A stretch of DNA of 64,000 bases from a virus, in the UHGV virus genome UHGV-0020956; one strand, written 5' to 3'. Position numbers and translations under genes: made by a program. Each line of letters opens with the position of its first letter. Position 1 is the stretch's first letter. Under the pieces are notes generated by a model. It saw nothing but the letters and a program-made list of their open reading frames with translations, was not told the DNA's origin and did not search any database. Positions 14,760 to 18,433 of the stretch are shown one piece after another.

Positions 14760-16391
14760 TTAAAACACAAGTTGGTCTAATTCATCTAAATTTGTATCTC
14801 TTTGCTCGTCCACAGCATACTTATCACCTATTAAAGTTGCAATATGATTTCCGTAACTTAAAGCCACAATCTTATCCTTTGTTGCACTGTTTCTATTAGG
14901 TTCTGACAATTTCAGAATACCATTATTCCATGTTTGAGTTAAACTGATAGCTTCTGACATCATAAGTGCTGTTTGAACATATGGTAACTTAATATTGACT
15001 TTTTCCTCAGAACTCATAGTAAGATAATTCACATCTTCTTCAAATTCTGTTTCAATCGTTAATTCGTCCACCAAAAATTCAATCATTTCATTGTCTAAGG
15101 CTTTCTTTAAATCAAGCCACATTAAACTATTTCGTTCACTTGTACCAACAATAGGTATGATACATGGTATAGCTTCTGGGTCAACTGTCTTACCTTTAAG
15201 TTCTTGAATTTTAGCGTCTGGAACTATTTGCAGTGCAGATTCATAACAAACTGTAAATCCATGTGGATTCCAGTTACTTCGTGATGGGTGTTCAAAAGGC
15301 TTGGATAACTCTGTGTAATAAAGAGTGCCACCGCTTCTCTCGTCCATTACGATATAATCTGCTTGATAATCCCAAAAGAACTCTCTAATCTTTTGTTGGA
15401 ATCCCTCACTATCACTAGCAGGATGTGTTCCAATATATTCTACTTTTCGTCTAGCTTTACCATCTTTCATAATAACAGCCATACAACCAATAACACTATT
15501 ATCATTATCGTTTGTATTGCTATTAACGAAAGCGTAGTCAATGAAAAGTAAGCGTTTTTCAAATTCGCCTTTAGGTCTATTACCTAAATCAGTTGACATA
15601 AATATATCCATGGGTGTAGGTGGTTTGTAGGCTCTTTTTATTACTTGATTCTTTCTGAAATCTTCAAGTAAGAAGAAAGCACCCTCTGTTTCACCATACA
15701 TTTCATTTAAGTCCTCAGTAACAAAATCTATATCTGAATCAAACTCTTTATCATGCCAGTAATCAGCCCATGTTTTAAGGTTAAATAAAATTGCAAGGAA
15801 AATATTAGACGCAAAGAAATTATACTTATGGTCTTTTCGCATCATACTTTGTTGAACAACAAGTTTAAATTCTTGCCAGAAACTCTCACTTCTAAATCTT
15901 GCAGATGTAATACTTATAGTTTTACACTGTTCAATCCAACGTGGTAATGTTTTACCATTGCTATCTTTATATTTGTCCAATAAAGTAAATTTAGCTTGCC
16001 TTGGGTGAGCCATTTTAGAGAATACAGAATCTAGTAAACTCTTTTTCAAAAGTCTACGTTCTTCATATATAAGCATACTAGCCCTCTCGCCCCTTGCGGA
16101 GTCCGCACAAGGTAAAACTGTTATAGCACTACCATTTATTTTTCTAAAATCTACTTCTATTGAATCATTATTGTATTTAAAAACTATATCACCACGTTCA
16201 TAATAATATTGTAAAACAGGTGAAAGTTTCTTACATAATTCTTCTTCTAATTTCTTTTTAACCATTTTGGTTGCTTGTGGAATTGTAGAAGAAGTAATAA
16301 CAACTTCTGCGTAGGGATACAACATGCAATGCACTGTAGCGGCTAACGAAGCAATGAAGGTTTTCTTATTATTATCGTTGAGTTTTTTATC
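14760..16391 (-). CDS. terminase large subunit, C-terminal portion (lacks Walker A; in-frame extension upstream of annotated GTG start to 16391)
   Basis: Walker B-like MLIYEE and nuclease domain present; in-frame upstream extension reads ...KKTFIASLAATVHCMLYPYAEVV resembling the T4 gp17 post-P-loop region; no N-terminal ATPase start. Confidence 0.65.
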   Translation of the reverse strand, partial: DKKLNDNNKKTFIASLAATVHCMLYPYAEVVITSSTIPQATKMVKKKLEEELCKKLSPVLQYYYERGDIVFKYNNDSIEVDFRKINGSAITVLPCADSARGERASMLIYEERRLLKKSLLDSVFSKMAHPRQAKFTLLDKYKDSNGKTLPRWIEQCKTISITSARFRSESFWQEFKLVVQQSMMRKDHKYNFFASNIFLAILFNLKTWADYWHDKEFDSDIDFVTEDLNEMYGETEGAFFLLEDFRKNQVIKRAYKPPTPMDIFMSTDLGNRPKGEFEKRLLFIDYAFVNSNTNDNDNSVIGCMAVIMKDGKARRKVEYIGTHPASDSEGFQQKIREFFWDYQADYIVMDERSGGTLYYTELSKPFEHPSRSNWNPHGFTVCYESALQIVPDAKIQELKGKTVDPEAIPCIIPIVGTSERNSLMWLDLKKALDNEMIEFLVDELTIETEFEEDVNYLTMSSEEKVNIKLPYVQTALMMSEAISLTQTWNNGILKLSEPNRNSATKDKIVALSYGNHIATLIGDKYAVDEQRDTNLDELDQLVF

Positions 16392-16635
16392 TCAACATCT
16401 TATAATATACCAATTACTCTTATAAGAATAGCATATGTTTCCATACAATAAAATGTGAAGTATGTCGGACACTCTTGGATTTATTATATTCTTTAATTAA
16501 ATAAAGTTTCAAAATCTATGCGTTACAATACTTTTACCTTTTAAAATAAAAGTTATCTCGGCGTTATCCTTTTTATGAATTGGAGAACTTTCACCGAATT
16601 TGCCCGATTACAGAATAAGCTATTCACATTTTTAC

Positions 16636-18114
16636 TTATTCTAAGCTATATAAAGTATTAAATTTTTTAAGTTTTCTATCCAAATAAATATTACAGCCTT
16701 TGTATAAATATTTATATATTTTCTCTATATCATAAATATCTCCCCATAATACACTAAATACTTTACTTCCTTCTTTTTGAGTTAATGGCGGTAAATGTAT
16801 ATTTAATTCTTTACTTAAAAAGATTGCAAGAGGTTCTATCATTTCTTTCATACCTGTAAAACCACATCTTACATTTCTTTTTTCCAAACTAATACTAACA
16901 GTTCCGTCACCGTCAAAAAATCCTCTAATAAAATCTCTCATATATTTCTTAGGGAAAATATTATTTTTTGGAAATTTTAAAACATAAGTTTTATTAGGAA
17001 CACAATTTAATTCAATTAAATCATCAACAATTTTTCTGTTAGTAATTATAACCGAACTTGACTTGTATTCTTTTCCTGTTTGTTTTAAATATACTTCTCT
17101 ATCTTTAATTAGATTATCAGTTTGCAAACTATATTTAAATTTCTCTAAATGTTTTTTATCTTCTCTGCACAAAGTTAAAGCTAAACTGTTTTTCGTCTTA
17201 CCTCTATAAGTTTTTAAGGTTACACAGCCGTCAGCGTATAAAAAACCTAACCAATAAGCTTTCCACTCATTGTCAATAATGGAAAAATAATCTTGATTTA
17301 CTTTATACTTTCCATATTTGCTTTTGTACAACTTTTCTTCTGGAACTTTGGGTTCTGTTTCTTTGCCTAAATAATCAAATACATTATAAGTAACATTATT
17401 AACCTTATTTAAACAATCTTCTAAATAATGACTTCTGGTTAATTTTACTTCTAATTTTTTTGTTAATTTCTTATTTCCACCATAATCGTGTATTTTTTCT
17501 TTACTTACATTCAAATTGTTTGCTATTTCTTCATTTGTCATAAAAGAAAAATTATCTAAAATATATTTCTTTTGCTCATTAGTTAATGAGTTTCTGTTTT
17601 CGTTATAATTGAAACGATTACAAATATTATAATCTTTTCTTTTTCCATGAGCATAAGCATAACTTTGAATAGTTTCCATTTTTTTATGAATTTTTTCCGC
17701 AATATCTCTTGTCGGCATTTTTTCATAATTTTCCAAAATGAATTTTCTATCTTCGCAAGTTAGTTGCCTAATATTATTAACTAACTTACTATCCTTCGAT
17801 AAATTCAATTTTTTACCCCAACGTAATACTCTATTTCTATCCCAATTTAATTTTTCACATAAGTCTGTTTGTGACATTTGAGAATAATTTTCTATAAGAA
17901 AATCTAAATCTTCTTGAGAAGTTGTACTATCTTCTCTAAGAGGAATAAAATCTTCGTCTTTTTTTAATCTTTTATTCCAAGCATGACCATTTACTTGTTT
18001 TTTTGTTACGCCTAATACTTCACAAATTTCCCAAGTTTGCATATCGTGATAATTTTCTTCTATAAACTTTTTCTGATAATCTGTTAAAAAATTCACTTTT
18101 TTACCTGTTGGCAT
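16636..18114 (-). CDS. LAGLIDADG homing endonuclease with four N-terminal HTH-like repeats
   Basis: 492 aa; two LAGLIDADG motifs (LGFLYADGCV, GFFDGDGTV); own RBS aaggagg; inserted between the two terminase fragments. Confidence 0.85.
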   Translation of the reverse strand: MPTGKKVNFLTDYQKKFIEENYHDMQTWEICEVLGVTKKQVNGHAWNKRLKKDEDFIPLREDSTTSQEDLDFLIENYSQMSQTDLCEKLNWDRNRVLRWGKKLNLSKDSKLVNNIRQLTCEDRKFILENYEKMPTRDIAEKIHKKMETIQSYAYAHGKRKDYNICNRFNYNENRNSLTNEQKKYILDNFSFMTNEEIANNLNVSKEKIHDYGGNKKLTKKLEVKLTRSHYLEDCLNKVNNVTYNVFDYLGKETEPKVPEEKLYKSKYGKYKVNQDYFSIIDNEWKAYWLGFLYADGCVTLKTYRGKTKNSLALTLCREDKKHLEKFKYSLQTDNLIKDREVYLKQTGKEYKSSSVIITNRKIVDDLIELNCVPNKTYVLKFPKNNIFPKKYMRDFIRGFFDGDGTVSISLEKRNVRCGFTGMKEMIEPLAIFLSKELNIHLPPLTQKEGSKVFSVLWGDIYDIEKIYKYLYKGCNIYLDRKLKKFNTLYSLE

Positions 18115-18433
18115 AAGGGTAAACCCTCCTTAATATAATAAAATTTAATACTAAATAACTAATACCTCTACTGCAAATCGCCGCCCACACATGGCTTATA
18201 CCAACTAAATACAACATAACATGCTGAAACGGATATAGTTTTATCTTTAATCTTCTCTCAGCATAAATATTCCAATTACGTCTATAGAATGTTGTCCATT
18301 CCTTAATATTTTTCTTTCTTTGTTCCCATGGTAATCTTCTGTCAGTCTTTTTCTTTTCTTCTTGTTTTTTCTTTCTTTTTTCCACAAGACTAATAATATC
18401 TATATCTTTGTTTTCTTCTAACATAGACATCAC
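18101..18433 (-). CDS. terminase large subunit N-terminal fragment (putative exon 1), reads through into HEG region
   Basis: 110 aa; ...RRLKIKLYPFQHVMLYLVGISHVWAAICSRG... matches the L-x-P-F-Q ... SRQ-GKT N-terminal signature of T4-like terminases, ending just where the P-loop should continue. Confidence 0.5.
   Translation of the reverse strand: MMSMLEENKDIDIISLVEKRKKKQEEKKKTDRRLPWEQRKKNIKEWTTFYRRNWNIYAERRLKIKLYPFQHVMLYLVGISHVWAAICSRGISYLVLNFIILRRVYPYANR

Follow-up and report, generated by a model that had tools for sequence, protein, structure and literature searches.

Group I introns in the phage gene for the large terminase subunit (TerL) are documented already, and splicing has been shown both in vitro and in vivo for the TerL intron of SIOphi, a member of the Bastillevirinae (PMC11878797). 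TerL introns have further been noted in staphylococcal myoviruses (PMC11934314), and terminases are among the typical intron targets in phages, whose introns mostly carry GIY-YIG, HNH, PD-(D/E)xK or EDxHD enzymes (PMC3984707). The survey in PMC11878797 contains one LAGLIDADG case, located in a DNA polymerase gene. Based on this list of enzymes, and on the LAGLIDADG cases found in that survey and in other phage genes, a LAGLIDADG gene in a phage intron is less common, not new. Here, we analyze the UHGV virus genome UHGV-0020956, the whole 64,000-nucleotide (nt) stretch being referred to as the window. Its TerL gene is interrupted by an insert containing a LAGLIDADG homing endonuclease gene, and we identify this insert, with high confidence, as a phage IA-type mobile group I intron placed directly before the Walker A lysine codon.

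All intron and TerL features lie on the minus strand, where the open reading frame (ORF) list and the raw sequence reveal three consecutive ORF pieces. The product of ORF 18433-18101 ends ...LYPFQHVMLYLVGISHVWAAICSRG and then continues into the insert as ISYLVLNFIILRRVYPYANR up to a stop codon. Exon 1 (18158-18433) comprises the N-terminal ~91 codons of TerL, ends ...AICSRGIS and has U18158 as its last base. ORF 16334-14760 encodes the remainder of the TerL protein and can be extended upstream in frame as ...NNKKTFIASLAATV. Exon 2 (14760-16364), which encodes the remainder of the ATPase domain together with the nuclease domain, starts AAA ACC TTC (K T F), its first codon being that of the Walker A lysine. 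The intron itself is 1793 nt long (16365-18157), with U18157 as its first and G16365 as its last base (omega G), and has a G+C content of 25-27% compared with 31.5-33.5% in the exons. Both exons match a single protein family of unknown function, phrog_15503 (exon 1 at profile positions 15-104, exon 2 at profile positions 98-225), and are thus parts of one protein. A TerL gene split by a LAGLIDADG gene had been proposed in the original prediction, and the order of the pieces on the minus strand, Pfam, phrog_4645 and the TerL fold all agree with this proposal.

The terminase identity of the host gene is apparent at the level of structure. Neither Pfam nor NCBIfam yielded a match to the TerL fragments or the joined protein, and a PDB sequence search with the joined TerL also returned none. 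An AlphaFold model of an uninterrupted homologue that is 93% identical to the joined product (P0001, mean predicted local distance difference test score 86.5) was compared with the PDB using Foldseek, with T4 gp17 as best match (E 4e-15), followed by Sf6 gp2, D6E, HK97 and T7. The matches to large terminases range from E 4e-15 to 1e-9 and cover both the ATPase and the nuclease domain. In the model, the CSRGxSK[ST] motif is found between a strand (79-84) and a helix (90-104), which corresponds to P-loop geometry. A portal gene follows directly after TerL (phrog_2739, E 4e-38), and the homologue in the closest isolated phage, Enterocloster phage PMBT24, is annotated as TerL in its record. The predicted fold and the adjoining portal gene thus mark the host gene as a genuine, if divergent, TerL. 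When the joined protein was searched against a database, 491 homologues were identified and, among the best 120 of these 491, most are single proteins of ~590-630 amino acids (aa). In an alignment of 44 homologues, R86, G87 and K90 are invariant. Two shorter homologues (P0062 and P0079) were considered as further intron alleles and rejected, being cut by contig ends or a frameshift, with an uninterrupted P-loop.

The intron boundaries were fixed by gap-free alignment to intronless alleles at both the DNA and the protein level. Joining the end of exon 1 (...GGT ATT AGT, 18158) to the start of exon 2 (AAA ACC TTC, 16364) results in CSRGIS/KTF (slashes denote splice sites and junctions from here on), and the joined exons are colinear, without any gap, with 12 of 12 uninterrupted alleles. 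These are nine IMG/VR contigs (L009-L017) identified in a scan with the joined protein and encoding uninterrupted TerL proteins of 90-94% aa identity, a further IMG/VR contig whose TerL is uninterrupted at the P-loop (L018, IMGVR_UViG_3300045988_133818), PMBT24, with an uninterrupted TerL of 632 aa that is 64% identical to the joined product, and phage CB457P1. All 12 alleles encode ICSRG-[A/G/L]-S-K-[S/T] at the junction, and two more metagenome contigs are likewise uninterrupted at the P-loop. As the bases flanking each boundary differ, the junction cannot slide, and the colinear alignment therefore places the intron at 18157-16365. The base preceding the intron is a U and its last base is a G, as required by group I chemistry, and the same is true for three related IMG/VR introns (L019, L020 and L021) and for the introns of Arcanobacterium phage TPWB06 and Staphylococcus phage CF1, all described below. 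The predicted joined-exon sequence across the junction is GGTATTAGT/AAAACCTTC, also written ...TGCAGTAGAGGTATTAGT/AAAACCTTCATTGCT..., a corresponding synthetic intronless site, as candidate endonuclease target, is GCGATTTGCAGTAGAGGTATTAGTAAAACCTTCATTGCTTCG, and the predicted spliced product is a continuous 624-aa TerL containing ...CSRGISKTF.... Among close relatives, the intron is patchily distributed.

Alignment with uninterrupted relatives, from which the original prediction had expected the exact insertion point, thus located it with 12 alleles. The junction proposed there, SRG/KT, had been flagged as uncertain, and rightly so, given that the splice point was 6 nt off (18158, not 18164) and the junction is in fact SRGIS/KTF. 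Ending exon 1 at 18164 was initially attractive due to the resulting canonical A-x4-GKT motif and the likeness to the TPWB06 junction GGT/AAA; it was rejected because it leaves a 2-aa gap relative to 12 of 12 intronless alleles, for example opposite SRGLSKTF of PMBT24. Alternative 3' splice sites after another G (e.g. ...CAACG/) are either out of frame or add residues not seen in relatives. The 'deviant' character ascribed to the P-loop is a trait of the whole family; the P-loop looked deviant because the codons ATT AGT are kept and the family motif is SRG-x-S-K-[ST], with S instead of G before the lysine.

It should be noted that the exon stretches flanking the intron, ~40 nt each (18164-18200 and 16322-16364), are far more diverged from the 90-94% identical relatives than the remaining gene, and that blastn alignments break off there. 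They could represent a co-conversion tract or target-site divergence, but the segment also varies among intronless alleles.

The ORF within the intron (16636-18114) encodes a protein of 492 aa with matches to Pfam LAGLIDADG_3 (30.6 bits, cutoff 22.5) and phrog_4645 ('endonuclease', E 3e-54). Two LAGLIDADG motifs are present, WLGFLYADG (288-296) and IRGFFDGDG (396-404), and over its C-terminal ~220 aa the protein shares 31-37% identity with phage genes annotated as 'mobile intron protein/endonuclease'. Residues 8-222 (window 17449-18093) consist of four tandem helix-turn-helix (HTH)-like repeats of ~45 aa each, with weak matches to sigma-70 region 4, YlxM and excisionase-type HTH domains as well as phrog_323. 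This four-HTH arrangement was found only in the TerL-intron relatives L019-L021, which are also the full-length relatives of the endonuclease (IMG/VR search, 36-45% identity) and occupy the same intron position. Judging from its sequence, the protein is probably a LAGLIDADG endonuclease of the single-chain, two-motif type to which four HTH-like DNA-binding repeats have been added, and is predicted to act on intronless TerL. The earlier proposal that the gene has its own ribosome binding site and stop codons and does not form an intein agrees with our analysis: its frame differs from that of exon 1, an AGGAGG Shine-Dalgarno sequence (18130-18125) is found 10 nt upstream of its ATG, and each frame of the 271 nt that separate its end from exon 2 is closed by 6-12 stop codons.

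The 285 nt following the endonuclease ORF contain a group I core consisting of P2-P9 with a P3/P7 pseudoknot. The core (16365-16643) is organized in the order P2-P3-P4-P5-P6-P7-[two helices]-P3'-P8-P7'-P9, followed by a terminal hairpin, a tail and the final G. P2 (16642-16635 with 16619-16612; AGAAUAAG with CUUAUUCU) starts inside the last ORF codons, overlaps the endonuclease stop codon and is the minimum-energy hairpin directly 5' of GUAA-P3 in 8 of 8 sequences folded, each with a different stem sequence. P3 is formed by 16607-16601 and 16471-16465, P4 by 16597-16592 and 16563-16558, P5 by 16584-16582 and 16569-16567, and P6 by 16552-16547 and 16536-16531. P7 (16521-16517 with 16435-16431) is followed by the two extra helices P7.1 (16516-16512 with 16482-16478) and P7.2 (16506-16502 with 16495-16491). 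The remaining elements are P8 (16464-16460 with 16446-16442), P9 (16426-16420 with 16405-16399) and the terminal hairpin (16396-16391 with 16382-16377). The tail, GAUAAyA(n)G, is aligned across the family and its final G is present in 12 of 12 members. A family nhmmer profile detects a single copy in the window (16636-16368, E 1.6e-49).

Covariation was assessed by drawing the structure of the window sequence onto a sequence-only MAFFT alignment (A2) of 12 family members, with 3' partners slid by 1-3 columns and 500 shuffles as controls. Standard pairs are found in 91.7% of 697 cells of the 12 relatives, compared with 32-46% when slid. Two-sided changes affect 36 of 63 pairs (128 cells), compared with 13-20 pairs (19-30 cells) when slid, and no observed value was reached by any of the 500 shuffles. 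Pairing extends to 100% of cells in P7, P7.1 and P8 and to 95% in P3, and each of these helices has pairs changed on both sides; for example, GCAUA with UAUGC in P7 becomes GAGUA with UACUC in three sequences, and four of the five pairs of P7.1, the outer extra helix, have changed on both sides. P4 is likewise paired in 100% of cells, its variation being one-sided only. The window copy has a standard pair at 63 of 63 pairs and the family residue at every invariant alignment column.

Part of this core also gives a weak local match to the Rfam group I model Intron_gpI (RF00028), at 16609-16464 (E 0.0044 in a 401-nt search, model positions 48-158), that covers P3, P4-P6, the 5' strand of P7 and P3', and is suggestive, not sufficient alone. 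The Rfam alignment contains a 38-nt insertion at the same place as in an intron of CB457P1 that scores 93.6 bits, and P7.1/P7.2 (16516-16478) are placed exactly where this Rfam-aligned intron has its insertion. P2, P7.1 and P7.2 are used in the classification of group I introns (PMC3984707). By its extra helices between the 5' strand of P7 and P3', the intron is of the phage IA type, the assignment being made at the IA level.

The 5' strand of P1 (18160-18155, AGU/UAU) spans the 5' splice site, and its 3' strand, the internal guide AUAGCU (16644-16649), is located inside the last endonuclease codons directly 5' of P2. Together they form six contiguous base pairs (bp), including a U18158.G16646 wobble at the splice site. 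In relatives, P1 comprises 4-7 contiguous bp including the U.G, and the guide is always found directly 5' of P2: UUGCUUG with UAAGU/AA in L020, AGCC with GGU/U in L021, UUGCC with GGU/AA in TPWB06, AUUUGCC with GGU/AAAU in CF1 and UGCU in L019. P1 is nevertheless the least secure part of the RNA model, with weaker evidence than the core. A second AUAGCU (16624-16619, 9 possible bp) was rejected as guide, this segment being the loop and 3' strand of P2, which is formed in 8 of 8 folded sequences, and inspection of the 43-nt leader before the ORF revealed no guide with acceptable pairing.

Because the guide 5' of P2 pairs across the 5' splice site, the endonuclease ORF and the 43-nt leader together are the loop of P1. 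The leader (18115-18157) contains the 5' strand of P1, the endonuclease Shine-Dalgarno sequence, a small hairpin and a motif, AGTATTA..AAGGAGGGTTTACCCTT, that is conserved in L019 and partly in L020. The hairpin (GAGGG, 18128-18124, with CCCUU, 18119-18115) covers the Shine-Dalgarno sequence and is the minimum-energy fold of the leader, not significant compared with shuffles. It is found in three of four relatives, conserved in L019 and as a compensated variant in L020. From its position, it could limit endonuclease translation.

Based on this comparison of sequence and structure, we propose the following splicing pathway. TerL would be transcribed as one pre-mRNA, in which the end of exon 1 (...AGU) would pair with the guide AUAGCU, forming P1 with the U.G wobble at the cleavage site. 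The ~1.5-kb ORF would loop out of P1, and the following 285 nt would fold into P2-P9 and the P3/P7 pseudoknot. An external guanosine would then attack after U18158, and the freed exon 1 would in turn attack after G16365. Exon joining would restore the P-loop and yield the 624-aa TerL. For homing, the endonuclease would cut intronless TerL near the P-loop coding sequence during co-infection, and the cut allele would acquire the intron when it is repaired using the intron-bearing genome as template. Indirect support for homing comes from the homologous endonuclease and intron units found at or near this TerL site in three other contigs, and from the patchy occurrence of the intron in close relatives.

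Several observations weigh against a splicing group I intron. The guide lies in coding sequence and its conservation could partly stem from the protein C-terminus (...SLE or CLD, followed by the stop codon); P1 is short, its six contiguous bp having a duplex energy of -3.8 kcal/mol; P10 was sought and none convincing was found. P5 is poorly aligned, with 60% of cells paired, and the structure string, derived from the window sequence, inflates the percentage paired, not the compensatory counts. In the search with the group I model, which the original prediction had suggested as a check, the local match on 401 nt scores 20.5 bits compared with a gathering score of 50, and no intron call was obtained over 6 kb (14000-20000) or the whole window. 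Members of the ribozyme family in L003-L008 likewise go undetected by this model at E <= 0.01. Splicing itself is inferred from the comparison of sequences and structures.

The absence of an Rfam call at gathering level, together with the listing of every piece as an ORF by the program, would fit a free-standing homing endonuclease gene that splits TerL into two genes, expressed as two polypeptides without RNA splicing. This is highly improbable, because the cut falls inside the P-loop, one codon before the lysine that is invariant in 44 homologues (K90), exon 2 has no ribosome binding site, relatives encode a single protein and the ribozyme is conserved. Specifically, no Shine-Dalgarno sequence is found ahead of the first in-frame GTG (16334) or ATG (16325) of exon 2, the U/G boundaries restore the frame without a gap, and a free-standing gene would not need the conserved, covarying core that follows the ORF. 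Two separate terminase proteins in relatives, a scenario raised in the original prediction, were not found: all examined relatives encode one continuous protein of ~620 aa at the P-loop. The short P1, the lack of a P10 and the indirect case for splicing could also indicate a decayed group I intron that has lost splicing and leaves a broken terminase gene, in a defective phage or a dead allele. We consider this very unlikely because all 63 pairs and every family-invariant residue are kept and neither the endonuclease ORF nor the two exons show a frameshift or internal stop codon. TerL is, moreover, essential for tailed phages.

LAGLIDADG domains are also known from inteins and, in rare cases, from group II introns, and phage terminase P-loops are known intein sites, which would favor an intein or a group II intron. 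In-frame protein fusion is impossible here because the ORF is in another frame and has its own ribosome binding site, and because stop codons abound in every frame of the 271 nt behind it; barring sequencing errors that affect the reading frames, an intein is thereby excluded. For a group II intron, the region lacks a reverse transcriptase/maturase ORF and any Rfam group II match, and the boundaries are UAUUU...AUAAG, not GUGYG...AY. The RNA flanking the ORF fits a group I core, and the chance that the insert belongs to either class is close to nil. The proposal of a group I intron with a LAGLIDADG gene in a peripheral loop, already put forward in the original prediction, is supported by the empty sites, the covarying core, the U/G boundaries and homologous units elsewhere.

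The homologous units L019-L021 all have the layout TerL exon 1, leader with ribosome binding site, LAGLIDADG ORF, ~280-nt core and TerL exon 2. Their cores share 66-74% nt identity with the window core, and their junctions are CSRGLG/KSF, CSRGIS/KTF and CSRG/LSKTF, all with U at -1 and a terminal G. In L021 (IMGVR_UViG_3300037400_000936, ~525-1929), the unit is located 6 nt upstream of the site used in the window, L019 and L020, and its guide is altered to fit this shift (GCC plus GUCA).

Beyond these units, a blastn search of GenBank phages with the 300 nt after the ORF returned ~40 records with 70-79% identity over 100-150 nt. In eight of eight annotated records fetched, the ribozyme match either separates the pieces of a split gene or adjoins a gene for an endonuclease. 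Sites in TerL were found in Staphylococcus Sextaecvirus phages and TPWB06, and sites in the major capsid protein in a crAss-like phage and a bajarodcaudo virus. In Acinetobacter phage ME3 (L023:1389-1693), the ribozyme copy is upstream of a RecA-like gene and stops a few codons short of its GAGKST P-loop. Clostridioides phage pCD1602_4, which has no annotation, contains tandem cores (L022:917-1181 and 1447-1691) 265 nt apart. In the Sextaecvirus-type TerL, the family ribozyme is found directly before the Walker A lysine codon (ARKSG/KSF); phage 6ec represents the empty-site allele for this junction and has another family member further downstream in its TerL. The intron of TPWB06 (L007:2439-2683) has no ORF, and those of Staphylococcus phages CF1 and S-CoN_Ph1 (L024, L008) contain a GIY-YIG ORF in the P5 loop. 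The TPWB06, CF1 and S-CoN_Ph1 records list each exon fragment as a 'terminase large subunit' coding sequence of its own, with no intron annotated.

The TerL gene of the Enterocloster-phage-like group is an intron hot spot. In CB457P1 (L002, OP172753), TerL is split into three pieces by two other insertions (~4234-4510 and 5262-~6535), neither of which is annotated as an intron. The first lacks an ORF and matches the window ribozyme family in its 3' half (nhmmer E 2e-23), while the second is the Rfam Intron_gpI match of 93.6 bits and contains an I-TevI-like GIY-YIG ORF. L018 has an insertion of ~1.8 kb (2202-4010) elsewhere in TerL, at a point equivalent to window position 15725. Exon identity between L018 and the window is ~80% from the P-loop to this insertion (window 16316-15725), compared with 93% 3' of it. 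Introns are not mentioned in the PMBT24 paper.

The recurrence of family members near P-loops raises the possibility, which we regard as doubtful, that a single ribozyme lineage has settled at one functional position, the codon boundary ahead of the Walker A lysine, in phage ATPase genes that are unrelated to each other. The copies concerned are those in TerL of the Enterocloster-phage-like group, in the Sextaecvirus-type TerL and upstream of the RecA-like GAGKST of ME3. They have a LAGLIDADG gene in L1, a GIY-YIG gene in L5 or no endonuclease, and one relative is displaced by 6 nt with a changed guide. If this were true, the landing site would be set by RNA (a short guide and reverse splicing) or by repeated endonuclease capture, not by one endonuclease, and the protein with four HTH repeats and a LAGLIDADG domain would represent a new architecture among endonucleases, one that evolved for P-loop DNA.

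Upstream of TerL, a 296-aa ORF (18434-19324, minus strand) directly adjoins the gene. It has Cys-X2-Cys pairs near its N-terminus and a sole match to phrog_3314 (function unknown, E 4e-20), and by position could be the small terminase subunit. The only other Rfam match at gathering level in the window is a tRNA gene on the plus strand (31982-32054, 68.5 bits).

TerL is a standard marker for phage phylogeny and packaging-mode prediction. If an intron goes unrecognised, TerL appears as two unrelated 'hypothetical' ORFs and an endonuclease, and the same annotation problem is found in the deposited CB457P1, TPWB06 and Sextaecvirus records. The TerL of CB457P1 was reported with 'low identity' (PMC11035940), which is probably explained by its unannotated insertions. 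Further, the curated Rfam group I model misses this whole ribozyme family, members of which are inserted in TerL, the major capsid gene and further genes of gut and staphylococcal phages, and the intron content of phage metagenomes is thus under-counted. The locus is also a further case of selfish elements at the most conserved codons of essential genes, and the closely related intron-plus and intron-minus phages (90-94% TerL identity) provide a pair suited to homing tests. New are this copy of the intron and the small subfamily with LAGLIDADG genes to which it belongs, the placement of the endonuclease ORF in the P1 loop, the four HTH-like repeats, and a ribozyme family invisible to Rfam that is recurrently sited before the Walker A lysine codon.

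Among described systems, the T4 td intron with I-TevI, the archetype of phage subgroup IA2 and of the self-splicing type, likewise interrupts an essential phage gene and contains a homing endonuclease gene with its own ribosome binding site. Both introns share one helix order (P1-P2-P3-P4-P5-P6-P7-[two extra helices]-P3'-P8-P7'-P9), and J2/3 (GUAAUC) and the P2 hairpin are similar to those of the window intron. The td host gene is thymidylate synthase rather than TerL, however, and sequence similarity is marginal (family hidden Markov model (HMM) E 0.02 on the td locus). In a T4-like td locus (L027), the endonuclease ORF lies between the P3-P6 and P7-P9 segments, whereas the LAGLIDADG gene in the window is located in the P1 loop. 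The TerL introns of the Bastillevirinae and other Herelleviridae share the host gene class, are mostly IA-like and have a homing nuclease gene in a loop (PMC11878797, PMC11934314). These TerL introns encode VSR-like or HNH-type nucleases, in contrast to the LAGLIDADG enzyme found here, and the phage lineage also differs, the window belonging to a ~100-kb Enterocloster-phage-like siphovirus group whose TerL is not seen by Pfam.

The Sextaecvirus-type TerL introns of TPWB06, CF1 and S-CoN_Ph1 have a homologous core (family HMM E 1e-42 to 1e-53) and an equivalent insertion point, ARKSG/KSF compared with SRGIS/KTF in the window, even though the two TerL proteins are unrelated at the sequence level. 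Their endonuclease is either missing (TPWB06) or of the GIY-YIG type and encoded in the P5 loop, unlike the LAGLIDADG gene in the P1 loop described here. Phage LAGLIDADG mobile intron proteins, such as ORF036 in the DNA polymerase III alpha gene of Bacillus phage 0305phi8-36 and crAss-like endonucleases, resemble the window endonuclease in the two-motif C-terminal ~220 aa (31-37% identity), while the four N-terminal HTH-like repeats of the latter were found only in its L019-L021 relatives.

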